In this document: positions 8,897 through 62,661 of the stretch, one piece after another
How the letters are laid out: every line of letters starts with the position of its first letter
Numbering within the stretch: position 1 is the stretch's first letter
IMG/VR virus record: IMGVR_UViG_3300007609_000008
Location: 1 to 64,000 of that record
Length of the DNA: 64,000 nt
Strand: one strand, 5' to 3'
Origin: a virus
Notes under the pieces: model-generated
The model's input: the letters and a program-made list of their open reading frames with translations, nothing else
Database searches by the model: none
What the model was told of the DNA's origin: nothing
Translations under genes and position numbers: made by a program

Positions 8897-8925
8897 AAGC
8901 CTATACTAAATGTGTGGGCTTTTTT

Positions 8926-15748: not shown

Positions 15749-15750
15749 AA

Positions 15751-17393: not shown

Positions 17394-17395
17394 TT

Positions 17396-17683: not shown

Positions 17684-17697
17684 TAGAGAACTATTAG

Positions 17698-29270: not shown

Positions 29271-29593
29271 CAGTCGCAGCATTCACACCACAAGCATTGA
29301 TCCTGACAGAAAAAGCAAAAGAAAAAGCAAATTCTCTCAAGGAAGACAATAAACTATTAAGAGTCTACGTACACGGCGGAGGCTGTTCAGGCTTCCAATA
29401 CGGATTCTCTATAGAAGAAAAGCAAGAAGACGACACCGTTATAGACAACGCAGTATTAGTAGACAGCCTATCCTATTCCTATGTAGTAGGCTCAACGCTA
29501 GACTATAAAGAAGACATCATGGGAAGCCAATTCACAGTCACAAACCCAAACGCAGTAGGCACCTGTGGTTGTGGCGTATCGTTTACGGTATAA
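29267..29593 (+). CDS. iscA: A-type Fe-S carrier (IscA/ErpA, HesB family)
   Basis: GGCSGFQY and TCGCGVSF. Confidence 0.93.
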   Translation: MTVAAFTPQALILTEKAKEKANSLKEDNKLLRVYVHGGGCSGFQYGFSIEEKQEDDTVIDNAVLVDSLSYSYVVGSTLDYKEDIMGSQFTVTNPNAVGTCGCGVSFTV

Positions 29594-29598
29594 TAACC

Positions 29599-43660: not shown

Positions 43661-43692
43661 TGTCGGTCCTTTAAAGGGGGGATATGTCATGT

Positions 43693-43700
43693 TATTTATA
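43693..43700 (-). promoter_or_regulatory. T4-type late promoter TATAAATA
   Basis: Exact motif 33 bp before ATG 43660. Confidence 0.75.
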
Positions 43701-43731: not shown

Positions 43732-43760
43732 TTGACATATCCGCAAAAATCTGTCATAAT
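43732..43760 (+). promoter_or_regulatory. Early promoter heading the radical SAM operon
   Basis: TTGACA-17-CATAAT. Confidence 0.82.
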
Positions 43761-43790
43761 AGTAGTATATTTACAGTGAGGACTAGTATA

Positions 43791-44099
43791 ATGTATATGA
43801 ATCTTGGCAACTCTTTAAACTATACCACTTCTGGTCGTAAGCGGGCCAAGCTGCCAACCAAGAAGGCTGTCAAGCGTAAGTTCGAACCTTATGTGCCTTC
43901 TAAGACATATATAAGAGAGACACCTGATTATCCTAGTGTCACTACATCGCCTGCTGCTGACTCATGCAGCAAGCCTACGAGAACAGAATACACAGGCACG
44001 CTTGTTAAGGGCATCGCTACTATGCATAAGTCTAATGCAGTGCCTATCATCAACGACCAAGAAGCAAAAGATATTTCAAACATGAGGCGTGGTTCGTGA
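43791..44099 (+). CDS. Conserved T4-like small protein
   Basis: YTGTLVKGIATMHKSNAVPI motif; GAGGA RBS. Confidence 0.75.
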   Translation: MYMNLGNSLNYTTSGRKRAKLPTKKAVKRKFEPYVPSKTYIRETPDYPSVTTSPAADSCSKPTRTEYTGTLVKGIATMHKSNAVPIINDQEAKDISNMRRGS

Positions 44100-44704
44100 A
44101 AATAGACTTTGATCTAGTATCTAGATGGATGTATGAGATACGAGAAAATTCTAGAATGTTAGATTGCTTCTGGCCGAGTCAGTTGCAAAGCAAGAAGTGG
44201 ATAATTGACACCCTAGTCAAAGAAGCATATTGGCGTGGTAGCATGGGTGACATTGTTATCTTTGGCGGCTGGTATGGCGTTCTTGCACAGATGCTACATC
44301 AAGAATTTGGCGGTAAATATATCAGTGTCGATAATGACCCTTCTTGCAAGGAAGTCTTTGATAGAATCAATACTAGCAACAAAATAGTGTTTAAAGATGG
44401 CTGTATGTCCGAATACGACTACAGTGATTCAATATTTTTAGACATGGTGATAAACACTAGTAGCGAACATGTATCTCAAGAAGTGTATTCTCAATGGTGG
44501 AACAACATTCCTAAAGGTACTAAATATGTAGTACAGGGCAATAATTTTTTTGAGACAGATGAACATGTGAGATGTACTGACACTCTTGAAGAATTTATCA
44601 CTATTAATTATCTAGAAAGCGCAAAGATTAAAGAATCTTTGAATTGCGGCATGAGACCAGATGGTTCTCCTTTCTATCGTTTTATGGCAATAGGCGTTAA
44701 ATAA
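44096..44704 (+). CDS. Class I SAM-dependent methyltransferase-like
   Basis: IFGGWYGVLA motif I variant, SVDND, VINTSSEH, VQGNN. Confidence 0.7.
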   Translation: MKIDFDLVSRWMYEIRENSRMLDCFWPSQLQSKKWIIDTLVKEAYWRGSMGDIVIFGGWYGVLAQMLHQEFGGKYISVDNDPSCKEVFDRINTSNKIVFKDGCMSEYDYSDSIFLDMVINTSSEHVSQEVYSQWWNNIPKGTKYVVQGNNFFETDEHVRCTDTLEEFITINYLESAKIKESLNCGMRPDGSPFYRFMAIGVK

Positions 44705-46161
44705 TGAAACTTAAGCACGGTGGTGAATCTAACTCTAATAACATAAGAGTTCTTGAAGACAAGCGAGACTATATTAATAATATTAGTCCTTCTTTTTGTT
44801 CTGCTAAGTGGTTGCAGACTACACTTTATTTACAGAATGGATACAATCATTCTTGTCACCACCCTTCACCTCACAAAATTCCTTTAGAAGAAGTACAGGC
44901 TAATCCTGCTGCCTTGCACAACAGTGCATTTAAAAAAGAACAGAGAGCTAAAATGCTCAAAGGCGAGAGACCAGCCGAGTGTGATTACTGTTGGAATATT
45001 GAAGATTTGGGAAAAGGTTACTTCTCAGATAGACACTACAAAACTTCTGATTATTGGGCATGGCATAGAGTAGATGAACCCGCTGAATCTGATCCGTATG
45101 ATGATATCTTTCCTTCTTACTTAGAGATTTCATTTTCTAACGCTTGTAACTTCGCATGTGCATATTGTACACCCGAAGCAAGCTCTAAATGGATGAAAGA
45201 CATAAAATCACATGGTGCATATCCTGTTGAGTTTGGTAGCCATTCTCTAGATAGTCTTAGAGATTTACAAAAAATTCCTTATAAAACTGATGAACATAAT
45301 CCTTATGTAGAAGCATTTAACAAGTGGTTTCCAGATGCTCTTCCTCATCTCAAGGTTTTCCGCATAACTGGCGGCGAACCTACAATGAGCAAAGACTTTT
45401 GGAAATCATTAGATTATATTTTACAAAATCCGAGAGATGATTTAGAAATTTCCATTAATACAAATCTTGGTGTACCAAAAGAACTAATTGACAGGTTGAT
45501 TGAGTATGCTAAAAGACTTGATACCGCATGTAAAGAGTGTGTTATATTTACAAGTTGCGAGGCATACGGTGAACAAGCAGAATATGTCAGAGACGGTTTA
45601 GACTATGATTATTGGTATGGCAATGTAAAAAGAATTCTAGAAGAGACTGAATGCAAAGTAGTTACTATGACTACTATAAATGCGTTGAGTCTTCCTTCTT
45701 TTACTCGCTGGTTAAAAGACATGATGGATCTCAGAATCGAATATAATCAGTTAGGTTTTATGAACAGAACTCCTATTAGTTTTAACTACTTGAGATTTCC
45801 TCCCCATCTGCAAGTATCAATACTTCCTGATTATATACGAGACAAATATGCTTCCGATATTGAAGAATATGTTTTGTCATGGGGAGAACTCGTTACTCCT
45901 TTGCCGAATGCAAAGTTTTACTTGGAAGAGATTGATCAGGTAAAAAGATTTTGTGACTACATGAGACAGGATACGACATCTGGTCCAAAATACAGAGAAA
46001 ACTTTATGCAGTTTATACAACATTATGATCTTCGCAGAGACAAAGATTTTATTTCTACTTTCCCTGAATATGAAGATTTTTATGAAGAATGGGCAATCGA
46101 GTATGCCCCTAAACTTAAAGCAGATTATATGGATTTGATAGAAGTTATTGAAGTAAAATGA
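44704..46161 (+). CDS. N-terminal Twitch radical SAM protein 1
   Basis: FCSAKW...SCHHP...CDYCW then CNFACAYC, TGGEP, NTN. Confidence 0.92.
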   Translation: MKLKHGGESNSNNIRVLEDKRDYINNISPSFCSAKWLQTTLYLQNGYNHSCHHPSPHKIPLEEVQANPAALHNSAFKKEQRAKMLKGERPAECDYCWNIEDLGKGYFSDRHYKTSDYWAWHRVDEPAESDPYDDIFPSYLEISFSNACNFACAYCTPEASSKWMKDIKSHGAYPVEFGSHSLDSLRDLQKIPYKTDEHNPYVEAFNKWFPDALPHLKVFRITGGEPTMSKDFWKSLDYILQNPRDDLEISINTNLGVPKELIDRLIEYAKRLDTACKECVIFTSCEAYGEQAEYVRDGLDYDYWYGNVKRILEETECKVVTMTTINALSLPSFTRWLKDMMDLRIEYNQLGFMNRTPISFNYLRFPPHLQVSILPDYIRDKYASDIEEYVLSWGELVTPLPNAKFYLEEIDQVKRFCDYMRQDTTSGPKYRENFMQFIQHYDLRRDKDFISTFPEYEDFYEEWAIEYAPKLKADYMDLIEVIEVK

Positions 46162-47588
46162 GCAAAGATTTAATAGACTATCGTAAGAGAGTTCTTGACT
46201 CAAAGTCTCCTTCTTTCTGTGGCGCAAAGTGGTACAATGCTACAACTTGGTTAGGCAGCGGCACTACTGCTTCTTGCCATCACCCAACTGCACATAAAAT
46301 TCCTCTCGTTGAATTGCGAGACGATTACACTGCCATACACAACACAAAACACAAGAAAGCCACTCGCAAGATGATGCAAGAGGGTGAACGTCCTCTTGAG
46401 TGTGAATATTGTTGGCGCATGGAAGACATGGGCAAAGATGCTGTCTCAGACCGTGTTTTTAAATCTCAGATATACAGTGAAGAAGATTTGCAGTCGGCAT
46501 ACGACAAGTCTTGGGAAGATAGTGTAGACTTAAAAACTTTTGAGATTGCATTTGACAGAACTTGTAACCTTGCCTGTTCGTATTGTAACCCTTCGTTCTC
46601 TACTACATGGGCTAGAGACATTAAGAAGTATGGTCCTTATCAAAACTTGTTGTCAGATGGAGCAGGTGCATTTGAGCAAGACGGTTCTTGGACTGAGCCA
46701 TACGGTAGAGACGAAGAGAATCCATACATCGAAGCATTCTGGAAGTGGTGGGACAATGGTCTGTCTGAAAGTCTAGAAGAGCTACGAGTTACTGGTGGTG
46801 AACCTCTTATGTCAGGCAATACTTGGAAACTGTTCGATTGGTTTGAAGAGCAAGATAGCGATATGCGCTTTTCAATTAATAGTAATCTAATTGCCAAAGA
46901 CGAGATTATTGATAAACTAATTGAAAAATCTCATCGTGTTAAAAACTTTGAGCTTTACACTAGCGCAGAGTGTTTTGGTGTACATCAAGAATATTTGAGA
47001 GATGGCTTTGATTGGGAAGTCTGGCACAACAACATGCTAAGATTTGCGAAAGAAGGCAACTACAATAGTCTTAACATTATGATGACTATTACCGGATTGT
47101 CTTTGTTCAGCACTGCCGAGTTTTTAGACGAAGTTTACGAAATGAAGAAACACAGCAAATCAGGACATCATCCTGTTGTAAGTGTGAACATACTTCGCTT
47201 TCCTAGTTTTCAGAACATTCTTACATTACCAAAAGAGATTCGTGAGCATTGTAGACAAGAACTTGCTTTGTGGTTTGAAGAAAATAGAAACAAACCACAG
47301 TGGCTAGAATTCGAACTTGCAAGCATTGAAAGATTGATTGAATATCTTGCAACAGACGAAACACCACACCGTAAAGCGAGTAATCGTGATACTTTATGGC
47401 AGGACATGAAAGCCTTCTACACACAGTATGATCAGAGACGCAACAAAGATATTAATGTGTTTCCAGAAATATTTACTAAATGGTATGACACTATAAATAG
47501 TGGTTACAAGAAAGCTGAACTACACTCAGGTGACAACACTATATTTTTAGACGATGACAGATTAATAGAATTAACGGATATATTATGA
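46158..47588 (+). CDS. N-terminal Twitch radical SAM protein 2
   Basis: FCGAKW...SCHHP...CEYCW, CNLACSYC, TGGEP. Confidence 0.92.
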   Translation: MSKDLIDYRKRVLDSKSPSFCGAKWYNATTWLGSGTTASCHHPTAHKIPLVELRDDYTAIHNTKHKKATRKMMQEGERPLECEYCWRMEDMGKDAVSDRVFKSQIYSEEDLQSAYDKSWEDSVDLKTFEIAFDRTCNLACSYCNPSFSTTWARDIKKYGPYQNLLSDGAGAFEQDGSWTEPYGRDEENPYIEAFWKWWDNGLSESLEELRVTGGEPLMSGNTWKLFDWFEEQDSDMRFSINSNLIAKDEIIDKLIEKSHRVKNFELYTSAECFGVHQEYLRDGFDWEVWHNNMLRFAKEGNYNSLNIMMTITGLSLFSTAEFLDEVYEMKKHSKSGHHPVVSVNILRFPSFQNILTLPKEIREHCRQELALWFEENRNKPQWLEFELASIERLIEYLATDETPHRKASNRDTLWQDMKAFYTQYDQRRNKDINVFPEIFTKWYDTINSGYKKAELHSGDNTIFLDDDRLIELTDIL

Positions 47589-48628
47589 GCAAACATGTAA
47601 TATTAACACTACAAAATCCTCTAGATGAGAGCGACACGTTAGACATAAAATTTAATGTCATGGATACAGATATTGGCAATGATTGGTTTGATTTCGCTTC
47701 TTCTGCTCTTAAAAACAATCCTAGATTAGAAAAAAACTTTTGCTGGTTAGGTTGGCCAGATCCCAATCGTACTGTTGATTACTTAGCAAATCGTTTAGAA
47801 GAGTGTGTTGACGGTATAAATGATTTTGCAGATAACAATGTCGAACTCTGGGAAGGGTATCGTATTGATAAAAACTGGGACGATATTACTAGCGAAGATG
47901 CTTTGAACCAGTTACATCATCATTTTGAGATTCTTATGGGACAAGTGTGGGATGTCGCTAAGTACATGATACGTTCAGATGATGCTACTTCTTACAATAT
48001 CAGACAGCTTAATAATCTAGTACACGAACTTGCAGCAAGAAAAGTAGCAACTACTAACAAAGGTATGACTATTGGAAGTTATTTGAATCCGGTTAGAGAA
48101 CTATTCAAAGAAGATTACTACGACAATTTCTCTCTGAATAGAGATTTTGGAGATGTGTTTCTGCATTACGCTCAGACTGGTAAAACTCCAATAGAAGCAT
48201 TTGAAGACAACGATGATTATGTTTTCAATAACAATATTAATGCTTTGAGATATATGTCCGGCGAATTTAATATTTGGTGGTGTAATTCAATTTCAGAAAG
48301 CGAAAATGCAAAAAGAAAAGAAGAACTGAAAAAATGGCTACAAGATAGAGATGTAATATTTCAAGAACATGATGATTTTTGTTACTATGTTGATCCAGAT
48401 GAAAACAAGCAAGGCATAGGTTGGTTAGTTGTTGCTAAATTGGAAAATCAGTTTGATAGCAATTCTAAACTTGCTGAAGAAATTGCAAAAAGATTAAACA
48501 TATATAGTATGTCGTGTTTTGAAAATGAAGAGTTAGTAAGTTCCTATGTTTGGGATTATAAATGGACTGATTCTGATTATATTGAAAACGAAATTAACTT
48601 TTTAAGTCCACTTTTCCCGAGAGCATAA
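47585..48628 (+). CDS. Conserved hypothetical protein (paralog of 58323..59165)
   Basis: LNQLHHHFE, LNNLVHELA, HYAQTGKT motifs. Confidence 0.65.
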   Translation: MSKHVILTLQNPLDESDTLDIKFNVMDTDIGNDWFDFASSALKNNPRLEKNFCWLGWPDPNRTVDYLANRLEECVDGINDFADNNVELWEGYRIDKNWDDITSEDALNQLHHHFEILMGQVWDVAKYMIRSDDATSYNIRQLNNLVHELAARKVATTNKGMTIGSYLNPVRELFKEDYYDNFSLNRDFGDVFLHYAQTGKTPIEAFEDNDDYVFNNNINALRYMSGEFNIWWCNSISESENAKRKEELKKWLQDRDVIFQEHDDFCYYVDPDENKQGIGWLVVAKLENQFDSNSKLAEEIAKRLNIYSMSCFENEELVSSYVWDYKWTDSDYIENEINFLSPLFPRA

Positions 48629-50025
48629 TGACAGTACACAGTTACAATTTATTAGACTTAAAAGATGTCACTGAAGAATTGAATACAGTTGGTAAAGGCT
48701 TCTGTCTTGCCAAGTGGTATCATGTCAGTATGCATCTTCATACCGGACAGAATCATAGCTGCTATCATCCAGCTCCTCACAAGATTCCTCTAGACTTAGC
48801 GAAAGAAGACGCCAATGTTCTTCACAATAGTCCTTTCAAGAAAAAAGTACGCAAAGAAATGCTTGAAGGTGGAAGACCGGCAGAGTGTAGTTACTGCTGG
48901 AATGTTGAAGACCTGGGAGACGATCAAATATCAGATAGAATGCTTCGTTCATCTGAGCCTTGGGCATTGCCATTAATTCAAGAGACTAAAGATATTGATT
49001 GGCAAGCAGATGTTTATCCTCGCTATCTAGAACTAAACTTTAGTAATCGCTGTCAACTGAAATGTAGTTACTGTGCTCCTATGGCAAGCTCTAGTTGGTT
49101 AAAAGAAACTGAGAAGTGGGGCAACTGGCCCTTAGAAAATCGTATCAATGTTAGACAATACGATAATGACACCTTCAAAAACGAAGGCTCCATTTACGGC
49201 GAAGAAGACACAAACCCATACATCAAAATCTTTTGGGAGTGGTTCCCTGATGCATATCCACACTTACACACACTAAGATTTACTGGAGGTGAGCCTTTAC
49301 TTAGTCCTAACGTATTTAAGGTTCTCGACTATGTTGGCGCCAATCCTAAACCAGACTTAGAGTTTGCTGTAAACAGTAACATGATGATTCCAGAAAGAAA
49401 CATTATTCGTTTTATTCAGACAGCAAATGATTTGACTGTGAACAATAAAATTAAAGGATACTCGCTGTTTACTAGTGTTGATACTTGGGGCAAACAAGCA
49501 GAATGGATTCGTAACGGACTCGAAATAAAAAAATATGAAAGTAATCTTCACTACTACATGGAACATTCTGAATCAAAGTATTTCAGTTTTATGGTGACTT
49601 TCTGTTTGCTTGCTATTCCTAACTTTACTGAGTTTTTAGACAAGGTGTTAGAGTTTAGAGAAAAATATAATGTAGATGACAGTTATCAGCGTGTTAATTT
49701 TGATACCCCGTATACTATTGAACCGCCTCATCTGACTGCTCGTATTGCTGATGATTGGATGATCGAACGATTAGAATATACTTGTAATTACTTAGAAGAA
49801 AGAGTAGACGATAGTGATATCAAAATGTTCTCATCTGTTGAACATAAGAAACTGTTACGTGTTCTTGAATGGGTAAAACAAAACAGATATGAGGGCGAAG
49901 AGCTTGCTATGAATAGAAGAGATTTCGCTAAGTTTGTAGACGAGCATGACAGAAGAAGAGGCACAGATTTCCATGCTGCCTTTCCTGAACTAAGAAATTT
50001 TTACGATATGTGTAAGGAGTCATAA
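48628..50025 (+). CDS. N-terminal Twitch radical SAM protein 3
   Basis: FCLAKW...SCYHP...CSYCW, CQLKCSYC, TGGEP. Confidence 0.92.
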   Translation: MTVHSYNLLDLKDVTEELNTVGKGFCLAKWYHVSMHLHTGQNHSCYHPAPHKIPLDLAKEDANVLHNSPFKKKVRKEMLEGGRPAECSYCWNVEDLGDDQISDRMLRSSEPWALPLIQETKDIDWQADVYPRYLELNFSNRCQLKCSYCAPMASSSWLKETEKWGNWPLENRINVRQYDNDTFKNEGSIYGEEDTNPYIKIFWEWFPDAYPHLHTLRFTGGEPLLSPNVFKVLDYVGANPKPDLEFAVNSNMMIPERNIIRFIQTANDLTVNNKIKGYSLFTSVDTWGKQAEWIRNGLEIKKYESNLHYYMEHSESKYFSFMVTFCLLAIPNFTEFLDKVLEFREKYNVDDSYQRVNFDTPYTIEPPHLTARIADDWMIERLEYTCNYLEERVDDSDIKMFSSVEHKKLLRVLEWVKQNRYEGEELAMNRRDFAKFVDEHDRRRGTDFHAAFPELRNFYDMCKES

Positions 50026-50687
50026 TGAATATAGTTATTGTAGGACCTGGAAATGATCCAAAAAGATTTGGAACACACTTTGTCAATCTTTGTGAAAGTA
50101 AAGGACATTCTGTCACTAAGTTTTCATATAGACTAGAAAATGAATCATTTGAAGATGTAGTAGAAAGATATAAAACAGAAATTTCACATCTAGACAGGGT
50201 AGATCTTTTTTTATATAACTCTATTGGTGGATTTTATCCAGGTCAAGCCTTTCACTATCACACCGGTCATGAAGTAGAATACAAGAGATGGCAAGAAGGT
50301 ATTATGATAAATGGTGCAATGCCTCATGCATTATCTCTTAAGACTCTTGAAAAAATGGATGAGCAATCTTCAATAGTTTTCATGACATCTTCTGGCTCAT
50401 ATCTAGTCAATAGAGACAACTACTTAGAGCTTGCTGGCTACTTTGGAACAAAAGGTGCATTAAATCATCTATCAAGAGCACTCGCTGAATGTAATGATGC
50501 TGGTGCTAAAGTTTGTATCATGGCTCCTCATATTCCGTACGATGATGGTGATGATGAAATAACAGAAAGAATAATGAATATACTCACAGAAAAAATGTTA
50601 AATATTTTACCTGAAGACAACGGCAAAGTATTACAATGCTTCCCTCCAGAAGGTAGGCTACATTATTATCCGCATGGTAAACACTAA
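50025..50687 (+). CDS. Atypical SDR-like oxidoreductase
   Basis: VIVGPG...FG Rossmann start, VFMTSS, YFGTK (YxxxK). Confidence 0.65.
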   Translation: MNIVIVGPGNDPKRFGTHFVNLCESKGHSVTKFSYRLENESFEDVVERYKTEISHLDRVDLFLYNSIGGFYPGQAFHYHTGHEVEYKRWQEGIMINGAMPHALSLKTLEKMDEQSSIVFMTSSGSYLVNRDNYLELAGYFGTKGALNHLSRALAECNDAGAKVCIMAPHIPYDDGDDEITERIMNILTEKMLNILPEDNGKVLQCFPPEGRLHYYPHGKH

Positions 50688-51949
50688 TGATAAGTAAAGA
50701 CAGCAAGTCGTTTTGTATTTTGCCCTTTGTGCATTCTCATCTAAACACAGAAGGAGATGTTTTCCCTTGTTGTATAAGCTGGGACGCTCAAAGGTCTACT
50801 CAAATAGGTTATTTGAAAGACAATACATTAGAAGAGCTTTTCAATAGTGATAAGATGAAACAGCTTCGTCTCGACCTTGCAGCAGGTAAGAGAAGACCTG
50901 ATTTTTGTGATGCATGTTACAAACGAGAAGACAACGGTTTTGTTAGTGCAAGGCACGGAAACAATTTAGATTATCTTGATGTTGAAGATGATATTGTTGC
51001 TAGTATGCACGAAGACGGATATCTAGAACCAATCATTAAAAGTTGGGACATAAGATTTAGCAATCTGTGCAATCTAAAATGTAGAACATGTGGTAGCGTA
51101 TATAGTACCACTTGGGCACAAGAAGATGCTAAATTTAATGGGTTTTCAGAGTATAAACAGATAAACTCAATACCAGAAGGGGATCCCGATCCTCTAGATA
51201 ATCAATACGATAATGTTGATAAAATTTACTTTGCAGGTGGCGAACCTCTTATCATGCCTGAGCATTTTCGTGTTCTACAGAAAATAATTGATAGTGGCAG
51301 AGCACATAAAGTAAAATTATTGTATAACACAAACATGACAAAATTAAATTATAATAAGCACGATCTTATTGAATACTGGAAAGAATTTAAAGTGGTCGTT
51401 CTTGGTGCCAGCATTGATGCAATGGGTGACAGAGCGGATTACATAAGAAATGGAGTTAAGTGGTCTAATATTGAGAAAAATTTAAAAACGCTTTCTGAAG
51501 CTATTAAAAAGTATCCTAATATTAACATTCACATGGCACCTACAGTAAGTATTCTTAATGTACATTCTCTTGCGGATACTCACAGGTATTTTGTAGAGAA
51601 TGAATACATACCTAGTACTTCTTCAATTGTGTTGAACATGCTTCTAGGCCCCACTTGGTTTGAAATACGCAACTTGCCAAATGTACTAAAAGAAGAAGTA
51701 AAAGAAAAATTAAGAGATCACATATCGTGGTTAATTGAAAAAGATACTCGTCAAGATGTTGTTGAAAGTTTTGAAAGCATTTTAACTTATATTGATAATG
51801 ATGCTTCGGAAACAGACGTAATGAAATTTGTGCAAGAGACGAGACGAGTAGATGCAAGAAGAGATCAAAATTTTCCTGATACTTTTCCTGAGTATGCTGA
51901 ATGGTGGGATTCTTTAGATAAATCTTTAATAAGCGTATCAAATATATGA
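50687..51949 (+). CDS. N-terminal Twitch radical SAM protein 4
   Basis: FCILPF...GDVFPCC...CDACY, CNLKCRTC, AGGEP, NTN. Confidence 0.92.
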   Translation: MISKDSKSFCILPFVHSHLNTEGDVFPCCISWDAQRSTQIGYLKDNTLEELFNSDKMKQLRLDLAAGKRRPDFCDACYKREDNGFVSARHGNNLDYLDVEDDIVASMHEDGYLEPIIKSWDIRFSNLCNLKCRTCGSVYSTTWAQEDAKFNGFSEYKQINSIPEGDPDPLDNQYDNVDKIYFAGGEPLIMPEHFRVLQKIIDSGRAHKVKLLYNTNMTKLNYNKHDLIEYWKEFKVVVLGASIDAMGDRADYIRNGVKWSNIEKNLKTLSEAIKKYPNINIHMAPTVSILNVHSLADTHRYFVENEYIPSTSSIVLNMLLGPTWFEIRNLPNVLKEEVKEKLRDHISWLIEKDTRQDVVESFESILTYIDNDASETDVMKFVQETRRVDARRDQNFPDTFPEYAEWWDSLDKSLISVSNI

Positions 51950-53244: not shown

Positions 53245-54458
53245 TGACCAGATGCGTCAACACAGATAAATCATTAAGATATACAAACAGTGGAGATGTA
53301 GCTCTTTGCTGTAAGAGTGAGTTATGGTTAAATGACGAGAACGGCAATAAGTGTAATATATCAACACATGATTTTAATGCGCCGCTCAATGGAAAACTAG
53401 CAACTGAAATTCGTAATGACCTGAACAACGGGGTCCGTCATGCAAATTGCAAAAAGTGTTGGGACGAAGAAGATGCAGGAATAGCAAGCAAAAGAATTCT
53501 TGACAACTCCAGAGCAGTAGATTACTGGGGCAAAGATTTTTTGACTGATGGCAAAATTGAGCCAGCCATTGTTGAATTGAACTTAGGAACACTGTGCAAT
53601 CTTAAGTGTAGGATCTGTGGTCCATGGTCAAGCAGTAACTGGGTAAATGAGCACTATGCTGTAAACACTTCGCCCGAAAAGCAAACAAGAGAAAACAAAA
53701 AAAAGTATATGCAGCAGGTGAAGCAATGGCAAGGCAATTTTGAAGATGACAGTCCTACTTGGAAAAACATAGAAGACAGTTTGCCTCATTTGAAACAAAT
53801 TGATATATATGGTGGCGAGCCATTCATGGTAGAAAAGCAATGGGAAGTATTGCAAAAAAGCATAGACAGGGGGTATAGTAAAGACCAGACCCTACACTTT
53901 AACACAAATACTACCATATACTCTGAGAAGCATGTTAAAATTTTGAAACAATTCAAAACAGTTCTTATTAGTCTTTCGTTAGATGACATAGAAGATAGAT
54001 TTGAGTTTCAGCGTCATCCAGCTAAATGGGATCTGGTATCCGAAAATATACAAAAATTTTTACAGTTAAATGCAGATAATGAAAATATAACTGTTGTTGC
54101 TTGTGTAACTATCAATAACTTGAATGTATATTACTTACCTGAAATACTAGAATATTATGATAGTATTGGTTTAGGGTATTATACTAATATTTTACACGGG
54201 CCACCACATTATAATATTAAAAACATTCCGCAAAATTTAAAAGAAGTTATTACTAATAAATATAAAGAAGACATGAAGACTTCTAATGAATATAAGACGG
54301 AAAGACTGCGACAGGTAATGGAATTTATGAATTCATTTATTACTACAAATAATGAATGGACAAATTTTATAGAGTATACTAAAAAGAAAGACGAATACAG
54401 AAAAGAAAACTTCAATGAGGTTTTTCCTGAGTGGAGCGATGTAATTGAAAATAACTAA
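53244..54458 (+). CDS. N-terminal Twitch radical SAM protein 6
   Basis: RCVN...GDVALCC...CKKCW, CNLKCRIC, YGGEP. Confidence 0.92.
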   Translation: MTRCVNTDKSLRYTNSGDVALCCKSELWLNDENGNKCNISTHDFNAPLNGKLATEIRNDLNNGVRHANCKKCWDEEDAGIASKRILDNSRAVDYWGKDFLTDGKIEPAIVELNLGTLCNLKCRICGPWSSSNWVNEHYAVNTSPEKQTRENKKKYMQQVKQWQGNFEDDSPTWKNIEDSLPHLKQIDIYGGEPFMVEKQWEVLQKSIDRGYSKDQTLHFNTNTTIYSEKHVKILKQFKTVLISLSLDDIEDRFEFQRHPAKWDLVSENIQKFLQLNADNENITVVACVTINNLNVYYLPEILEYYDSIGLGYYTNILHGPPHYNIKNIPQNLKEVITNKYKEDMKTSNEYKTERLRQVMEFMNSFITTNNEWTNFIEYTKKKDEYRKENFNEVFPEWSDVIENN

Positions 54459-55053
54459 GCCGTTAGAGGGCGTAAGATATCAAAATACTACAGAAGAAAT
54501 GCCTATTTGGTTTTTTGAAGGAGTAGAACTTCCAGAAATTGATTTTGATTCTTTGAACTGGAAAAATTCACATGGCAGACAGTTATACGAGGACGATAGA
54601 TACAAAAAAAGAGAAGTTGCTGAATGGACTAGTAATAATAAAAATCCGGCAGCGATTGCAATTTTTAATGCAATAGAAAGTGTCGTGACAGAGATAGAAA
54701 AAAATTATCCAGCAGAAAACTTAGAATTGATTTGGCCAATTGATACATGGAAAAGATCCTCCTATGTAGATATCAAAAATGATCATGATGGATTTTGGAT
54801 GGGCGAGCATCTAGATAATAGAAATGTCAAGTGGACATGTATAATGAATTTAGAAGATAATGAAGATTCTACTAGATTTCACTTAGATTATTTTAACGAA
54901 GATGCGGTTGAAGGAAGAGAAAAAGAATTCTACGCACCTACGAAGAAAGGTAGCGGAGTTTTCTATTTCAATCATCATGCTTTATTACATAGCATAGGCC
55001 CGACTTCTGGTAAAGATAGATACATAGCATTTCAGATGAATTTGGTGAAATAA
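54445..55053 (+). CDS. 2OG-Fe(II) oxygenase-like protein
   Basis: GEHLDNR, LLHSIG, DRY; paralog of 25089..25664. Confidence 0.6.
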   Translation: MKITKPLEGVRYQNTTEEMPIWFFEGVELPEIDFDSLNWKNSHGRQLYEDDRYKKREVAEWTSNNKNPAAIAIFNAIESVVTEIEKNYPAENLELIWPIDTWKRSSYVDIKNDHDGFWMGEHLDNRNVKWTCIMNLEDNEDSTRFHLDYFNEDAVEGREKEFYAPTKKGSGVFYFNHHALLHSIGPTSGKDRYIAFQMNLVK

Positions 55054-56279
55054 TGAGCAAGGATACAATCTGCACTCTTCCATGGAATGGCATTCACTTA
55101 AATGCTAATATAGGAGTTTGTTGCAACTCTCTTAGAGCACTCAATTCTAATAACGGAGAACTCAGTACGGCTGAAGACTTGTTGTCCCTAGAAGAAAACA
55201 ATGATTTAATTCAGCTAAAAAAAGATTTGCTCGCAGGCGTAAAAAATCCTATTTGTGATCGATGCTGGAATATGGAACCAAGTAGTTTCAGAAAAACATT
55301 TAACCAGTCTTATCCAGAAACTTATCAGAAAATATTAACAGAATCACCTGAAAGTCTTCCTCTAGAACATATTTTCATTTCAATAGGAAATACTTGCAAT
55401 CTAAATTGTAGAATGTGTGGTCCACATAGCAGCTCTATGATAACAAAAGAGTGGTCTGATCCTGAACGTCCTCATCCAGTTAGACCAAGCAATATAGGAA
55501 AATCTATTATTGCAACAGATTATGATAATACACGCTCTAGTCACTTGAGTAATCCTAATTTTATAGAATATGTAAAAAATAATTACAAAGAGCTAAAAAC
55601 AATTTATATCTATGGTGGAGAGCCATTTATTATAATTGAAGAACATCTAAATTTTTTACAACTTTTAGTTGATTTAGGCGTATCTAAAAATATAAAGTTA
55701 CAATATTCTACTAACGGAACTAACACAACGTTGAGAAGATTTATTGATCTTTGGAAAAATTTTAAAGAAATATCAATCTCTGTCAGTTGCGATGGTATGG
55801 AAGAAGTGTATGATTTTATTAGATGGCCTAGTACTTGGTCAAAGATGAAGAAGAGCTTAGATTATTATTATGATTTTAGTAACAAAAATGATAATATAGC
55901 ATTACATGTTGCTTGCACTCTGCAAATCGCAACTTTAGAGCAAATAAAAAAATTTGAAAATTTTCTAAAAACAACTTATCCAAAATTATCTGGAAGCTAT
56001 TATATACCGGTAGATTATCCTGAAGAGTTTTCTTTAAAATGTGTTCCACTGCCAGTGTTGAAGGAGTATAATAATGATCCAAACTTGTCAGAAAGAGTAC
56101 AATCTATAATAAAACAAACAATTGATTCGTATAATCATGAAGAAAGTTTTAAGTACTTTGACAATTTTTTAAAAACCGCAGAGTGGCAAGACAAATACAG
56201 AAATCAGAATGTATACGATTACTTGCCTCAGATAAAAAAATGGAAAAAGATTCATGAAGACGATCAAGTATCAAAATAA
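55053..56279 (+). CDS. N-terminal Twitch radical SAM protein 7
   Basis: ICTLPW...VCC...CDRCW, CNLNCRMC, YGGEP. Confidence 0.92.
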   Translation: MSKDTICTLPWNGIHLNANIGVCCNSLRALNSNNGELSTAEDLLSLEENNDLIQLKKDLLAGVKNPICDRCWNMEPSSFRKTFNQSYPETYQKILTESPESLPLEHIFISIGNTCNLNCRMCGPHSSSMITKEWSDPERPHPVRPSNIGKSIIATDYDNTRSSHLSNPNFIEYVKNNYKELKTIYIYGGEPFIIIEEHLNFLQLLVDLGVSKNIKLQYSTNGTNTTLRRFIDLWKNFKEISISVSCDGMEEVYDFIRWPSTWSKMKKSLDYYYDFSNKNDNIALHVACTLQIATLEQIKKFENFLKTTYPKLSGSYYIPVDYPEEFSLKCVPLPVLKEYNNDPNLSERVQSIIKQTIDSYNHEESFKYFDNFLKTAEWQDKYRNQNVYDYLPQIKKWKKIHEDDQVSK

Positions 56280-57120
56280 TGTAATCAGTTTTGATAAAAT
56301 TATTGGATTTGGTTGTAGCTATACTGCAGGAACTGAATTAGTAGATCATAGTGTTCTTAATATTAGTGCAGAAAAAAGCGATGAGTTAAAAAGAAAAATG
56401 CCTATAGCAGACTACTATGGTGAAATTTCATCCAAGTTTGCAATTGGAGGGCTGTCTTCAGTTTTCGATCTACAAAAAAAATATGCATACATTGCACATC
56501 TTGCAAAAAAGTTTGAAGTGCCTTGGGAAAATTATGCATATGGCGGAAGTAGTTTAGAATATGTTTGCTGGCTTCTAACAAAAAAGATTTATAACAAAGA
56601 AATTAGAGACACCGATTTAATTGTAATAGGAGTAACTTGTCCCAATAGGGCGTTCTATGTGAAGAACAAAGAAGAAGTTATGCACTTACAACTGTCTAGA
56701 AATGTAAGATGGCCAAATGATGAATTTTTTGAAGATTATCTGATGACTTTTGGCAACGAAGATACTACAATATGGAAATATTTTCATCAATTGCAGTATC
56801 TTTCTTCTTTAAATGAAAAGCTAAATAATCGTATTGTACTGTTGCCTATGTCATTTCCTTGTCATGAATGGGTTAAAATATTATTTAATAGAAGGGATCA
56901 AGATAGAAAAAAGGAAGAACAATATTATATCGATGAATTAAAATCTATTAGGGGTATGATGACTGACGATTTAGAGCCTCTAATGTTAGGCGCATTTGAA
57001 AACCAGACGGTGGGTAGAACAATTGCACCGGAGGATTTACATGGTTATGGTCACTGTAATATGAAAATTCATGAGCAGTATGCAGAAAGATTGTATAAAA
57101 AACTTACAGGAGAATCATAA
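56254..57120 (+). CDS. SGNH-like protein
   Basis: GFGCSYTAG, NYAYGGSS, HGYGHCN..IH..YA. Confidence 0.6.
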   Translation: MKTIKYQNNVISFDKIIGFGCSYTAGTELVDHSVLNISAEKSDELKRKMPIADYYGEISSKFAIGGLSSVFDLQKKYAYIAHLAKKFEVPWENYAYGGSSLEYVCWLLTKKIYNKEIRDTDLIVIGVTCPNRAFYVKNKEEVMHLQLSRNVRWPNDEFFEDYLMTFGNEDTTIWKYFHQLQYLSSLNEKLNNRIVLLPMSFPCHEWVKILFNRRDQDRKKEEQYYIDELKSIRGMMTDDLEPLMLGAFENQTVGRTIAPEDLHGYGHCNMKIHEQYAERLYKKLTGES

Positions 57121-57224
57121 TGATCAAAAAAATAAAAGATTGGTATAAAGACTGGAAAAAGAAAAAAGAAATTAAAAAGAAACTTAAAAAATTAAGAGAA
57201 GAAGACCCTTTTATATATGACTAA
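57120..57224 (+). CDS. Basic 34-aa peptide (not in ORF track)
   Basis: MIKKIKDWYKDWKKKKELKRKLKKLREEDPFIYD; TAATG coupling upstream, 8-nt overlap downstream. Confidence 0.65.
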   Translation: MIKKIKDWYKDWKKKKEIKKKLKKLREEDPFIYD

Positions 57225-58326
57225 ATTAGCTGATACTTTTTGCATTGTTCCTTGGATAGGCGCAGTAGTTGCTCCCGATAAGGAAAATTTAATTTGCTGT
57301 AGAGCTAATGATAAGCCCACTGAGTATACCTTAGATTCTGTAAATACTGAAACACATAAACATCTGAGAGATGCTTTGGGAAATGGAGTAAAGGATCCTA
57401 TTTGTAAGAGATGTTGGTCTGATGAAAAATCAGGAATAGAAAGTTATAGACAAAGTTATAATAAACACTACAAAGACCTCATTGCATCCGACTCATATTC
57501 TCCCGCTAAACTTAGATTTTTAGAACTGACTCCAAGTAATGTATGTAATCTTGCATGTAGAATGTGTTCTTCTAGATATTCCTCTAAAATTGTTGCAAGG
57601 GAAAAGTATCTTTCTGAACTTAATTTATTTCATGAAAGAGAAAAAGCTCACTTTACAGATTGGAGAAACTTAGATTTATCACACTTAGAAGAGCTGAAAC
57701 TAATGGGCGGTGAGCCTATGTATCTAAAAGAGCATCTTGAAATATTAGAGCACCTAGACACAATTGGTGTACTTGAAAATTTAAATTTGATGGTGATTAC
57801 AAATTGCACTCATTCGATAAATGAAAAATGGAAATATTTTTTAACAAAAGCCAGACGAGTTCATATTGCTATAAGCATTGACGCAGTTGGTAAATTAAAT
57901 GAATATATTAGACAATATTCAAATTGGAATGAAGTTGAAAAAAATCTGCATGAGATAAACGAATTTTCTTTGTCTTTAAAAGATGTTTGGCTCAGTGTAA
58001 ACTGTACAGTTGGAATTTATAATGTAAACAAAACAAAAGAATTTGAAGATTATATGAAAAAACGAAATATTCATTATTATTTTAATCCTTTAGTGTATCC
58101 TAATTATCAAAGTTTGCATTACTTATCTGAGGATCATAAAAATTATCTTTTGAATCATGAGAATGTATCAAAAAAATTACATCATGTTTTGCAAGAAAAA
58201 GAAACACATGTTGTTAGTGCAGAAAAATTCATGGAAGAGACAACCGCAGTCGATAAATTTTATAATAAATATCTAAAGGATTACAACGAGGAGATATATA
58301 ATTTATTATATATGAAAAGATTATGA
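57217..58326 (+). CDS. N-terminal Twitch radical SAM protein 8
   Basis: FCIVPW...ICC...CKRCW, CNLACRMC, MGGEP. Confidence 0.92.
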   Translation: MTKLADTFCIVPWIGAVVAPDKENLICCRANDKPTEYTLDSVNTETHKHLRDALGNGVKDPICKRCWSDEKSGIESYRQSYNKHYKDLIASDSYSPAKLRFLELTPSNVCNLACRMCSSRYSSKIVAREKYLSELNLFHEREKAHFTDWRNLDLSHLEELKLMGGEPMYLKEHLEILEHLDTIGVLENLNLMVITNCTHSINEKWKYFLTKARRVHIAISIDAVGKLNEYIRQYSNWNEVEKNLHEINEFSLSLKDVWLSVNCTVGIYNVNKTKEFEDYMKKRNIHYYFNPLVYPNYQSLHYLSEDHKNYLLNHENVSKKLHHVLQEKETHVVSAEKFMEETTAVDKFYNKYLKDYNEEIYNLLYMKRL

Positions 58327-59165
58327 GAATAACATTTCATAGAGATGACAAAGAAGTAGGGTACATTAATTTTTTGACGTATGATAATTTAGCGTTTAAA
58401 TACTTCAAAGAAAATATTCTGCAAACGACAATGAAAACAAAAACTACTGGTGTTAGTTTTGAAAAATCTAAGCTAGAAATAATAAACAATTATATTGAAT
58501 ATAAAGATGTTATAGAAAAAATAAATCAATATGATTACAGCGAGAAGATAGAAACTGATGTCTCCAAAGACATGAGTTTACAAAAGTTGTTTGACACTCA
58601 TGAATATTTTGAAGTTCTAGGTGAAGTTAGAAGAAAAGGACTTTTACCAGACACACAAGAAATGGACGATATGTTCAACTTAGCGTGTAGGATGAATACT
58701 TTGATTCATAAAATGGAAGGCTCTGCTACTTTAGAAGGCTCTCAATGGTTTCAAGCCCTTTTTGATAAGCCAACTATATACAGAACAGATTTAGATGATG
58801 CTCTATTAGCAGAAGCAGTCGAAGATTTTGAAGAACATAAAATTTATATAGGATACGGCGAAACAGGGAAAAATTTGCATCATTGTTTCCAATTCAATGA
58901 AACTGATTTAGTGCATAGAAAAATGGTACAACCTCAACGCTCAATTTTAACTGAAATATTTCTTGTGTTGAATGGAGAGATGCCTCTAAGATGGGAAAAA
59001 TTTGAGGAGTGGTGTATAGAAAATGATGTAGAATCGTATGGGTATGATTATAAAAATCCAAAATATTATGGCAAGTGGGCAATAGGTGAAATAGAATCAA
59101 AATCTTTTGAGACTCTGACAGCTTTTCCAGTTTATGATGAGGTTAGAATAACTTTTAATGATTAA
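58323..59165 (+). CDS. Conserved hypothetical protein (paralog of 47585..48628)
   Basis: LFDTHEYFE, MNTLIHKME, GYGETGKN. Confidence 0.6.
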   Translation: MRITFHRDDKEVGYINFLTYDNLAFKYFKENILQTTMKTKTTGVSFEKSKLEIINNYIEYKDVIEKINQYDYSEKIETDVSKDMSLQKLFDTHEYFEVLGEVRRKGLLPDTQEMDDMFNLACRMNTLIHKMEGSATLEGSQWFQALFDKPTIYRTDLDDALLAEAVEDFEEHKIYIGYGETGKNLHHCFQFNETDLVHRKMVQPQRSILTEIFLVLNGEMPLRWEKFEEWCIENDVESYGYDYKNPKYYGKWAIGEIESKSFETLTAFPVYDEVRITFND

Positions 59166-60582
59166 GTGGGGCATATCTGCCGGTACACATGATGCAGCTT
59201 TGACAGTAGTCAAGGACAATAAAATTCTTTTTTCTTCTCATGCAGAAAGATACAGTGGCATAAAAAATGACAAAGACTTGAATGCAGATTTGATTGCAGA
59301 GGCTTTATCATTTGGCACACCTGAAATTATCTTTTGGTATGAGAATCCCTATACAAAGGCAGCTAGAAAAATTTATGCTGGTCAGCCTAATGCTTGGATG
59401 AGTCCTAAGAAGTATCTAAATAAATACGGACTAGGTTGCATACCCATTGAGTATGGCAATCATCACGCTAGTCACATGGCAGCAGGTTACTACACATCTC
59501 CATTTGCGTCTGCTGCTACTCTTGTCATTGATGCAATAGGCGAGTTCAACACTGTGTCTATTTGGAAAGACAAGAAGAAAGTATGGACTGCTAACTATCC
59601 TTCATCACTAGGTCTTTTCTATTCTGCAATGACGGCACGAGTAGGACTAAAGCCTAACGAAGACGAATACATTCTCATGGGCATGGCAGCATACGGTAAT
59701 CCTGATCGATTCTATTCTGACATGAAAGAACTATGTCTTGATGGCACAAACTTTCATCGAGGCTGTTCTTGGTGGAAGCCTGAACTCACAGAAGACGATT
59801 ACTTTGATATAGCAGCAGCAACTCAAAAACTTTACGAGAAATACTTTGTGAGTCTTTTGCGACTCACTAAAGACATGACAGGATCAGATAATCTAGTCTT
59901 CATGGGCGGATGTGCATTGAACTGTCTCGCAAACAGAATCATACCTCAGCACTTTGAAAATCATTGGATCATGCCGAATCCTGGAGACGCAGGATCATCT
60001 CTAGGTGCTATTCTTTCGCATACTAAGCAGAAAGTGAAATTTGACAATGCATTTTTAGGTGAAGAGATAAAAGGCAAATATCCAGTTGACAAAGCACTCA
60101 AAGAACTGTTACAATGTGGTATAGTTGGAGTTGCAAGTGGTCGTGCAGAGTTTGGTCCAAGAGCATTGGGCAATCGTAGTTTATTAGCTGATCCTCGTGG
60201 TCAAGAGATGAAAGACAAAGTGAATGCAATCAAGAAGAGACAAGAGTTTAGACCTTTTGCTCCCGTGATATTGCAATCAGATGTGAATGAGTATTTCAAC
60301 GTCAATAAGAGTTTTTCTTCACCCTACATGCAGCAAATAGTTAGGTGTAAGTATCCTAAAGATTATCCTGCTATTGTTCACGAAGACGGCACAAGTAGAG
60401 TACAAACAGTGACAAAAGAGTCACATCCTGGACTATTTGAGTTACTTACTGAGTGGAAGAAAGAGACAGGATGCCCTATGTTACTCAATACGAGTCTAAA
60501 CATCAAAGGGAAACCTATTGTCAATAATTTACAAGATGCTAAAGATTTTCAGAATAAGTACAAGGTTAAAGTCGTAAGTTAA
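59158..60582 (+). CDS. Carbamoyltransferase, NodU/CmcH family
   Basis: HDAA, HHASH, DAIGE, MGMAAYG, GGCALN, GDAG, EFGPRALGNRS, FRPFAP, LNTSLN. Confidence 0.95.
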   Translation: MIKWGISAGTHDAALTVVKDNKILFSSHAERYSGIKNDKDLNADLIAEALSFGTPEIIFWYENPYTKAARKIYAGQPNAWMSPKKYLNKYGLGCIPIEYGNHHASHMAAGYYTSPFASAATLVIDAIGEFNTVSIWKDKKKVWTANYPSSLGLFYSAMTARVGLKPNEDEYILMGMAAYGNPDRFYSDMKELCLDGTNFHRGCSWWKPELTEDDYFDIAAATQKLYEKYFVSLLRLTKDMTGSDNLVFMGGCALNCLANRIIPQHFENHWIMPNPGDAGSSLGAILSHTKQKVKFDNAFLGEEIKGKYPVDKALKELLQCGIVGVASGRAEFGPRALGNRSLLADPRGQEMKDKVNAIKKRQEFRPFAPVILQSDVNEYFNVNKSFSSPYMQQIVRCKYPKDYPAIVHEDGTSRVQTVTKESHPGLFELLTEWKKETGCPMLLNTSLNIKGKPIVNNLQDAKDFQNKYKVKVVS

Positions 60583-62518: not shown

Positions 62519-62661
62519 TGATTATTTTAAGCAATGGCCAGTCACAACAATTCTTTTCTTGTTATGCAGAAATTATAGATTTCATTGGCAACAGTGAGTT
62601 CAATTCAGTGATGAGTGGTGATCATCCACAGTACACATTGTCGTATGTGTCAATAACTTAA
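62518..62661 (+). CDS. Small protein, 47 aa (not in ORF track)
   Basis: TAATG coupling at both ends. Confidence 0.55.
   Translation: MIILSNGQSQQFFSCYAEIIDFIGNSEFNSVMSGDHPQYTLSYVSIT

Follow-up and report, generated by a model that had tools for sequence, protein, structure and literature searches.

What does a lytic marine phage make with eight radical S-adenosylmethionine (SAM) enzymes that are encoded in one operon? The question is raised by IMG/VR virus record IMGVR_UViG_3300007609_000008, a sequence of 125,421 bp (CheckV completeness 76%) whose first 64 kb, positions 1 to 64,000, form the stretch analyzed here (hereafter, the window). The features of the carrier fit a marine T4-like phage: its T4 RNase H gene (19975-20871 in the window), its own ribonucleotide reductase and PhoH genes, and the TATAAATA motifs found just 5′ of several gene starts are all consistent with this assignment. 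A reading made from the letters alone, which we call the original prediction, had described between positions 43732 and 60582 a biosynthetic operon with eight paralogous radical SAM enzymes bearing an N-terminal Twitch-like domain (N-Twitch), and had proposed that they build a modification on DNA bases, virion glycans or proteins.

Comparison with related loci indicates that the operon is an expanded form of a cassette that many phages share. Its core comprises some five ancient radical SAM orthogroups and a protein family that we call G5, and its add-on module consists of one or more SGNH/CE2-like esterases, a micro-protein ending in DPFIY[K/D] and a carbamoyltransferase. As to function, we tentatively favor an uncharacterized tailoring pathway acting on carbohydrate, most likely a sugar, a reading that may well prove wrong. 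The predicted promoter and genes are listed below, where bit scores refer to the NF033640 (N_Twi_rSAM) model.

43732-43760, + strand: sigma-70-type promoter match (TTGACA, 17-nt spacer, TG-extended CATAAT)
43791-44099, + strand: g01, small conserved protein of ~102 aa (phrog_27048)
44096-44704, + strand: g02, probable class I SAM methyltransferase, 202 aa (language-model neighbors in the Atlas)
44704-46161, + strand: rSAM1, radical SAM protein of type A, 485 aa (339.8 bits)
46158-47588, + strand: rSAM2, type A, 476 aa (295.1 bits)
47585-48628, + strand: g05, G5 protein of no known family, 347 aa (cassette conservation)
48628-50025, + strand: rSAM3, type A, 465 aa (296.6 bits)
50025-50687, + strand: g07, short-chain dehydrogenase/reductase (SDR)-like, 220 aa (adh_short_C2, 27.2 bits against a cut-off of 27)
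50687-51949, + strand: rSAM4, type B, 420 aa (387.3 bits)
51946-53244, + strand: rSAM5, type B, 432 aa (277.8 bits)
53244-54458, + strand: rSAM6, type B with a divergent N-terminus, 404 aa (307.1 bits)
54445-55053, + strand: g11, 2-oxoglutarate (2OG)/Fe(II) oxygenase-like, 202 aa (PF13640, E 0.005, below cut-off)
55053-56279, + strand: rSAM7, type B, 408 aa, opening a variable distal block (244.5 bits)
56254-57120, + strand: g13, SGNH/CE2-like esterase family, 288 aa (accessory-family profile, E 2e-13)
57120-57224, + strand: g14, basic micro-protein of 34 aa ending in DPFIYD (DPFIY[K/D] family)
57217-58326, + strand: rSAM8, type B, 369 aa (247.5 bits)
58323-59165, + strand: g16, distant G5-family paralog of g05, 280 aa (hhalign)
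59158-60582, + strand: g17, NodU/CmcH/TobZ-type O-carbamoyltransferase, 474 aa (Carbam_trans_N and Carbam_trans_C)

The radical SAM assignment is secure at the level of sequence families. All eight proteins score 244.5 to 387.3 bits against NF033640, which has a cut-off of 170 bits, and a six-frame search of the genome returned the same eight above that cut-off; the hidden Markov model check proposed with the original prediction has therefore been run and bears out its count. The general radical SAM model PF04055 (gathering threshold 29.5 bits) is matched with 29.6 to 47 bits by seven of the eight; rSAM3 falls just short at 29.1 bits, yet it has the motif and passes NF033640. Seven cysteines are invariant in the alignment of all eight, namely C10, C29, C74 and C77 in the N-terminal domain and C128, C132 and C135 of the CxxxCxxC motif (rSAM4 numbering), and the Pfam SPASM match likewise lies at the N-terminus (residues 10-78 of rSAM4 and 13-80 of rSAM5). 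The division into two subtypes also holds: rSAM1 to rSAM3 (type A) share FCxAKW..SC(H/Y)HP and are 34-37% identical to one another, whereas identity between the types is only 21-26%, and rSAM4 to rSAM8 (type B) carry PW/PF..CC, from which rSAM6 deviates.

The family had been called recognized but uncharacterized. Indeed, it has its catalog entry, while no characterized NF033640 member or structure was found in the literature or the Protein Data Bank (PDB), and our literature search found no paper on the N_Twi_rSAM family, the cassette or the DPFIY motif. The AlphaFold2 model of rSAM4 (pLDDT 92.3) resembles CteB, SkfB, anSME, BlsE, viperin, DesII and MoaA in Foldseek, with TM scores of 0.3-0.5 that denote generic likeness only, and a PDB sequence search with rSAM4 gave nothing usable. 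Because these resemblances are generic, the predicted structure leaves the reaction unnamed. Secondary NCBIfam matches of the radical SAM proteins are to cyclophane, sactipeptide and dynobactin maturases.

Iron-sulfur support genes encoded by the phage had been given as IscU, IscA and Bfd. The first two are present in the window on the + strand (IscU at 28896-29270 and IscA at 29297-29575), but Bfd (PF04324) was not found in the searched genome. A ninth radical SAM gene lies at 17698-18819 (+) and encodes a C-terminal SPASM domain. Its orthologs (E 1.8e-84 to the family profile) are located within the cassette in seven other phage loci, and part of the pathway may thus be encoded 25 kb away from the operon.

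To place the operon among its relatives, we used IMG/VR stretches found with a G5 profile, of which at least 468 were confirmed and 80 loci were kept for gene-content counts. Other comparisons drew on a set of 177 loci and on 79 bacterial loci. Relatives named below include sister or related phage loci (L001, L002, L003 and L099), two loci from bacterial metagenome-assembled genomes (MAGs; L028 and L087) and Ralstonia phage RsoM2USA (L179). Among the 80 kept loci, 59 have at least three N-Twitch radical SAM genes and 48 have at least five, and the carbamoyltransferase is present in 45 of those 59. The recurring IMG/VR gene order is R3 R2 R4 R6 R4 G5 (SGNH, peptide) CmT. Carrier contigs range up to 374 kb, which argues that the cassette crosses phage lineages.

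A megablast search of the whole operon against cultured phages gave no match. RsoM2USA (MG752970) is a cultured jumbo phage that carries a mini-cassette. It encodes a carbamoyltransferase that is 49% identical to g17, a single N-Twitch radical SAM with a strong match, three SGNH-like proteins and a micro-protein ORF, all of them annotated as hypothetical or unannotated. Its micro-protein ORF lies between RsoM2USA_200 and _201 (L179 11892-12014, − strand), ends in DPFIYK and matches the profile with E 4.6e-14. Four distant members of the N-Twitch family are found in Vibrio phages K566 and K567. In bacteria, many Bacteroidota and others have a single copy, and Bdellovibrionota MAGs have as many as eight copies in an array. 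The eight-gene arrays of L028 (a Bacteriovoracaceae MAG, 6055-18051) and L087 (a Pseudobdellovibrionaceae MAG) include copies 51% identical to rSAM2 and are without G5, DPFIY peptide or carbamoyltransferase. Small ORFs beside the Bdellovibrionota arrays were considered as genes and set aside, as they look spurious.

G5 is the other component of the core. The g05 protein has an invariant HHH-FE motif and an invariant QTGK, and its model (pLDDT 92.5) is a beta-barrel with a helical insert. The barrel is cyclophilin-like with a VIA Z of 8.6, a borderline value that unrelated models often reach, and Foldseek against the PDB gave nothing at E 0.001. No sequence relative of g05 was found in Pfam, PHROG, the PDB or the Atlas, or by tblastn against phages. 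The family profile nonetheless gathers 1,053 clusters at 50% identity. The two proteins that had been noted as paralogous unknowns are indeed distant paralogs, as hhalign aligns g16 with g05 over 187 columns (probability 90%, E 1.5e-6) and the two share H..FE.L.G, N.L.H and Y..TGK. One database protein, P0280, is a natural fusion of G5 with an N-Twitch radical SAM, which suggests that the two act together. Seven G5 representatives (P0205, P0219, P0221, P0222, P0225, P0234 and P0239) are 712-775 aa long, owing to an extra N-terminal region of ~400 aa that has no Pfam match and a faint internal similarity to G5.

The add-on module includes the last gene of the operon. With g17, both carbamoyltransferase domains are matched far above their cut-offs (Carbam_trans_N, 1e-37, 130.8 bits against 24; Carbam_trans_C, 5.8e-54, 182.6 bits against 27), and the NodU/CmcH-type assignment given earlier is thereby upheld. 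Against the NodU equivalog NF041651 the score is 143.7 bits, short of the cut-off of 1000, and g17 is by sequence a family member rather than NodU proper. Members of the NodU/CmcH/TobZ family O-carbamoylate hydroxyls (PMC2679770 and general knowledge).

The 34-aa ORF upstream of it, g14, is a conserved gene. Its family, a micro-protein of 33 aa, has 59 instances with 50 distinct 3′ ends. Every one ends in DPFIY[K/D], with several synonymous codons in use for the invariant residues. It had been described as interspersed in the operon; its distribution instead marks it as a gene conserved together with the carbamoyltransferase. In the 74 viral loci that have three or more radical SAM genes, both are present in 49, the carbamoyltransferase alone in none, the peptide alone in 3 and neither in 22 (Fisher's test 6e-16, not corrected for relatedness), and the three peptide-only loci end shortly after the peptide. 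From this pattern of co-occurrence, the micro-protein would belong with the carbamoyltransferase, as substrate or subunit, and not with the radical SAM enzymes. None of the 79 bacterial loci has the peptide. Carbamoyltransferases of phages farther removed, cyanophages and pelagiphages among them (S-CAM8, HTVC008M, RAS14 and C48C1), have no peptide, radical SAM, G5 or SGNH protein nearby. A search for DUF5989 (PF19451) in g14 gave no match in a Pfam scan (E 0.01) or in a six-frame genome search (E 10), although a query of 34 residues gives such searches little power. An APS-kinase-like P-loop protein accompanies 26 loci.

The SGNH-like identity of g13 is suggested at the level of its family and not by the protein itself, which has no Pfam match of its own; a DUF6071 search of the genome was negative. 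It belongs to a profile family of 67 members found in 39 loci (E 2e-13), whose representative matches DUF6071 (E 1.5e-8) and, weakly, Lipase_GDSL. Ser22 (of GDS) and His267 are invariant in the family alignment, and the best PDB matches of the family profile are CE2 acetyl-xylan esterases (E 6e-4 to 0.02). Three more paralogs of this family surround IscU/IscA on the + strand (25847-26584, 27983-28687 and 29569-30333), and a weak epimerase-like ORF is found at 27431-27766.

The remaining enzymes were named with varying success. For g02, language-model neighbors are phage "methyltransferase domain" clusters and orthologs are found in 10 loci, in agreement with a methyltransferase, but there is no Pfam, NCBIfam or usable PDB sequence match, and we regard it on those neighbors as a probable class I SAM methyltransferase. 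The SDR assignment of g07 is borderline: YxxxK is present and adh_short_C2 is just passed, whereas adh_short is missed (22.8 bits against 26.6) and the N-terminal glycine motif is degenerate; orthologs occur in L001-L003 and L099. For g11, the 2OG oxygenase signature H122-x-D124, H182 and R192 is invariant across five orthologs, in line with the earlier assignment, but the PF13640 score of 18.2 bits falls short of the cut-off (27), and the family profile has no PDB match. The first gene, g01, lies upstream of the cassette in L001, L002 and L099 and is missing from more distant cassettes, for which reason it is probably a backbone gene and not a pathway member.

How old is the array? The original prediction saw an accordion of accreting paralogs, a view that the tree of 136 N-Twitch family members does not sustain. 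The paralogs in the operon are 21-37% identical pairwise and fall in separate groups of the tree, each with counterparts from distant phages; the rSAM1, rSAM2 and rSAM6 groups also hold copies from a Bdellovibrionota MAG. Support is 0.95 for the rSAM1 group, 0.95 for rSAM5 and 0.985 for rSAM6 (15 loci including L028), and is weak for the others. Because rSAM2 is closer to the L016 and L028 copies (47-51% identity) than to its own operon neighbors (21-36%), the array appears to be ancient and not a set of recent duplicates, and recent in-place duplication is ruled out by the tree.

Change between sister phages is confined to the distal block of rSAM7, g13, g14, rSAM8 and g16, which is also the most AT-rich part (GC 0.30-0.32). 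The locus L001 has the rSAM7 type only and L002 the rSAM8 type only (rSAM8 is 61% identical to L002:15096-16193), and the present phage has both, with g13, g14 and g16; rSAM7 and rSAM8 are sisters in the tree, at a weakly supported node. The middle and later genes are AT-richer, as had been remarked, with GC of 0.30-0.34 from rSAM5 to g16 (0.21 for the 34 codons of g14) against 0.36-0.40 at both ends of the operon; the remainder of the window has 0.40. Decay of the paralogs under relaxed selection, which the original prediction had named as grounds for rejecting it, is ruled out by intact frames and by dN/dS ratios (nonsynonymous to synonymous divergence) against L001 of 0.02-0.08 where estimable (rSAM2 0.018, rSAM3 0.026, g17 0.043, g02 0.05, and also rSAM4). 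By this measure, the estimable genes are under strong purifying selection. Synonymous divergence (dS) from L001 is saturated in the operon (1.4-2.3 or not computable) and is 0.60-0.77 in downstream backbone genes, which suggests that the cassette diverged or was exchanged independently of the backbone. The operon thus seems to act as an exchangeable island.

The layout of the operon suggests when it may be expressed. The 17 ORFs lie on the + strand from 43791 to 60582, and neighbors share between 1 and 26 nt at all 16 junctions (ATGA, TAATG or longer), in keeping with the earlier description. The promoter-like site at its head lies in a 100-nt intergenic gap, matches consensus at 11 of 12 positions and has TG preceding the −10 hexamer. 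It is a consensus match that is notable for its position, as it alone among the promoter-like sites of the region heads an operon; such sites are not enriched region-wide (62 found against 71.8 expected in shuffles). Since the TTG at 43728 that was listed as the start of g01 falls within this promoter, the ATG at 43791 is the better start. The divergent minus-strand neighbor has a T4-late-type TATAAATA at 43693-43700, directly before its start, while the operon has a sigma-70-type promoter, and the operon is therefore probably a single early, translationally coupled transcript driven by the host RNA polymerase. Another TATAAATA, at 47492-47499 (+), is inside the 3′ end of rSAM2, ~90 nt upstream of g05, and could be an internal late promoter or a chance occurrence; the window holds nine such sites against 4.8 expected.

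On what, then, would these enzymes act? The statement that this is an undescribed multistep pathway stands, as no characterized member or paper was found, the genes have intact frames and evolve under purifying selection, and the phage has its own IscU/IscA. The three targets named for it do not fare equally, however: carbohydrate is best supported by context and DNA bases least. Under the carbohydrate reading, each N-Twitch radical SAM would cleave SAM through its CxxxCxxC cluster, and the resulting radical would abstract a specific hydrogen from a hydroxyl-rich substrate that is soluble and cytoplasmic. The likeliest such substrate is a sugar, either as a nucleotide-sugar or already on an acceptor. 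The four-cysteine N-terminal auxiliary cluster could serve as an electron sink or relay, and the outcome would depend on position: oxidation, epimerization, deoxygenation or C-C/C-methyl chemistry. If each paralog acts at a different position, as we propose, this would be why five to eight old, noninterchangeable copies are retained. The G5 proteins g05 and g16 would work directly with the radical SAM enzymes, while the SDR, 2OG oxygenase and methyltransferase would process intermediates, and the SGNH/CE2-like protein, DPFIY micro-protein and carbamoyltransferase would (de)acylate and O-carbamoylate a hydroxyl. We infer the early timing, the carbohydrate substrate and every reaction of this scheme from sequence.

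Sugar tailoring is suggested by the joint occurrence of accessory sugar genes, CE2-like esterases and the O-carbamoyltransferase. Related cassettes carry a GT2 glycosyltransferase (L002), a UDP-glucose/GDP-mannose dehydrogenase together with a B12 radical SAM (L003), a DegT aminotransferase (10 loci) and, among their accessory genes, an extended-SDR epimerase-like member. A family that recurs upstream in 17 loci profile-matches a weakly GT2-like ORF of the present genome at 100.5 kb. In the operon translations, read by eye, there is no signal-like N-terminus or long hydrophobic stretch, and no exporter is encoded, so the chemistry would be cytoplasmic. Several findings weigh against this reading. 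The operon itself is without a glycosyltransferase or nucleotide-sugar enzyme, the carbohydrate genes of its relatives are accessory and variable, and the promoter that would set early timing is a consensus match only. Structurally, rSAM4 matches the peptide maturases CteB, SkfB and anSME as much as BlsE, DesII and viperin. The neighbors of 26 single-copy bacterial members are heterogeneous (GT2 in 6 of 97, and also ABC transporters and PqqD), too much so for a substrate to be named from them. Finally, glycosyltransferases also decorate peptide-derived products such as mycofactocin, and sugar genes are therefore compatible with a peptide core.

Several nearby genes deserve mention in their own right. 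An NAD-dependent epimerase/dehydratase, which adds to the carbohydrate context, is encoded just beyond the window, 5 kb downstream of the operon (genome 65585-66439, + strand). The divergent neighbor (42413-43690, − strand) encodes 425 aa with a Sec-signal-like N-terminus (by eye), ~300 residues of Asn/Thr/Ser low complexity (104 N, 78 T and 51 S, with 28 NxS/T sequons) and a conserved Cys-containing C-terminal domain, phrog_20531. It occupies the same position in L002, L099 and L101, is confined to a marine phage subgroup, and is a candidate glycoprotein substrate. The next gene (40149-42416, − strand) encodes 755 aa that begin with what resembles a signal peptide and include a Pro/Glu-rich stretch and long regions rich in Ser, Thr, Asn and Gln; the protein has no Pfam, PHROG or cultured-phage match (tblastn).

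The same evidence must be weighed against other substrates. One unlikely alternative is that a peptide or protein is cross-linked, epimerized or oxidized, much as in ribosomally synthesized and post-translationally modified peptides (RiPPs), with G5 presenting the peptide and the other enzymes finishing the product; the substrate would be the DPFIY micro-protein, the N/T/S-rich secreted neighbor or a protein encoded elsewhere. SPASM/Twitch radical SAM enzymes are mostly peptide maturases, and both the top structural matches of rSAM4 (CteB, SkfB and anSME) and the secondary NCBIfam matches to cyclophane, sactipeptide and dynobactin maturases point the same way. The cassette does offer a conserved micro-protein whose C-terminal motif is invariant, but 22 viral loci with three to six radical SAM genes have neither it nor the carbamoyltransferase (about half of them carry G5), and no bacterial array has it. 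The cyclophilin-like barrel of G5 is a peptide-binding fold, although its Z of 8.6 is at a level that unrelated models often reach; G5 is also fused to a radical SAM in P0280. PqqD is encoded near two bacterial family members, whereas Pfam and NCBIfam scans of the operon proteins revealed no RiPP recognition element (RRE) or PqqD domain, and no Ser/Cys-tailed ORF is present in this genome or in the 177 loci. The N/T/S-rich neighbor, for its part, is restricted to the marine subgroup. RiPP clusters are recognized by an obligatory precursor and an RRE or PqqD domain, and the operon has neither.

Improbable as well is a free, nonglycan small metabolite (a cyclitol, nucleoside, alkaloid or cofactor) made for host takeover, antidefense or competition. 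In that case the add-on module would play the part that carbamoylation genes have in known natural-product clusters. An early-type promoter and soluble enzymes would suit a cytoplasmic product, and related cassettes also carry B12-dependent radical SAM enzymes. The carbamoyltransferase, tiny protein, GDSL/SGNH protein and APS-kinase-like protein (26 loci) mirror sxtI, sxtK, sxtL and sxtO of the saxitoxin cluster (PMC2679770), but this is a likeness of gene types and not a tested homology: the micro-protein has no match to the DUF5989/SxtK model, and no sxtJ-like gene is present. No polyketide synthase, nonribosomal peptide synthetase, cyclase or amidinotransferase was found in Pfam scans of the operon and a sample of the accessory genes of its relatives. 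Least credible of all is DNA hypermodification, in which a group such as a sugar would be placed on a base of the phage DNA to evade restriction. A TAGT-like glycosyltransferase gene does lie 2 kb downstream, beyond PhoH (62661-63509, + strand; PF20691 4e-10, phrog_842 6e-18), but an equivalent is lacking from the sister loci L001-L003. An NT5C-type 5′-deoxynucleotidase is encoded at 23921-24526 (+; E 1e-6), and enzymes of this type can deplete a canonical deoxynucleoside monophosphate in phages with unusual bases. Although the early-type promoter parallels the timing of T4 DNA-modification genes and island-like exchangeability would suit an arms race, the 125 kb available, 76% of the genome, contain no TET/JBP (PF12851) and no thymidylate-synthase-type hydroxymethylase (PF00303). 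The operon encodes no recognizable DNA-binding, base-flipping or nucleotide-kinase protein, and the accessory families sampled from the core cassette show no DNA-modification marker.

A more far-reaching and rather doubtful proposal can also be framed. It holds that N-Twitch radical SAM enzymes and G5 perform an undescribed radical tailoring, and that hundreds of phage lineages make, early in infection, an unseen carbamoylated product, either a heavily rebuilt sugar decoration or a free metabolite, that varies between sister phages like serotype loci. One clade of carbamoyltransferases would then require the DPFIY micro-protein, as a subunit or as an acceptor.

Whatever the product, the investment is considerable. 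In the 125,421-bp record of this lytic marine phage, 13% is devoted to nine radical SAM genes plus the phage's genes for Fe-S assembly. Radical SAM enzymes come at a high cost and are sensitive to oxygen. That such an outlay is made, and that the same core is kept in hundreds of phages, argues for a strong and unrecognized selective function. Identification of the product would give a chemistry to a blank enzyme family of thousands of proteins, found also in Bdellovibrionota and Bacteroidota. The G5 family (~1,000 clusters at 50% identity) and a micro-protein that is very common in phages would likewise gain a role. From the island-like exchange among sister phages it appears that the structure of the product is under diversifying pressure, and a diversifying product would bear on phage-host recognition or defense evasion in the ocean.

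Known systems resemble the cassette in part. Nishimura et al. (2017; PMC5332604) noted a T4-like genome of 183 kb that has 12 radical SAM genes and a gene for an A-type carrier (ATC), and proposed that phage IscU and ATC serve phage Fe-S enzymes. That genome, like the window, combines an Fe-S carrier with many radical SAM genes, while the report gives gene counts only, with no cassette, family assignment, partners or function (PMC5332604). In the saxitoxin cluster, with sxtI, sxtJ, sxtK, sxtL and sxtO, the carbamoyltransferase gene stands beside genes for a tiny protein that is reported to act together with the enzyme, a GDSL protein and an APS kinase (PMC2679770). In both settings the carbamoyltransferase is of the NodU type and is accompanied by a tiny protein, a hydrolase of the GDSL type and an APS-kinase-type protein, but the phage cassette is without a DUF5989 match, sxtJ or the scaffold-forming sxt genes, and the likeness is one of module logic only. 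The NF033640 entry is matched by the phage enzymes in their N-terminal four-Cys domain followed by CxxxCxxC, with membership by score, although the entry predicts no arrays, no G5 partner and no phage cassette.

Among proteins of known structure, CteB, SkfB and anSME (PDB 5why, 6efn and 4k36) are the best matches to rSAM4 (E 1.6e-6 to 2e-5) and share with it a radical SAM core and a Cys-rich auxiliary domain. In these maturases the SPASM domain lies at the C-terminus and the leader peptide is bound by an RRE at the N-terminus, whereas the phage proteins have their Cys-rich domain at the N-terminus, no RRE and no obligatory precursor. BtrN, AprD4, DesII and BlsE are radical SAM enzymes of sugar pathways that take hydrogen from a sugar or cyclitol carbon in order to oxidize, dehydrate or decarboxylate it; some of them have an auxiliary cluster. 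They share no sequence-level membership with the phage enzymes, and the structural likeness is generic (TM ~0.35-0.46), with DesII and BlsE among the Foldseek matches of rSAM4. In these enzymes the auxiliary domain is C-terminal, and one to three of them serve a pathway in place of the five to eight paralogs of the cassette; if the substrate is indeed a sugar, they would nonetheless be the model for how the cassette works.

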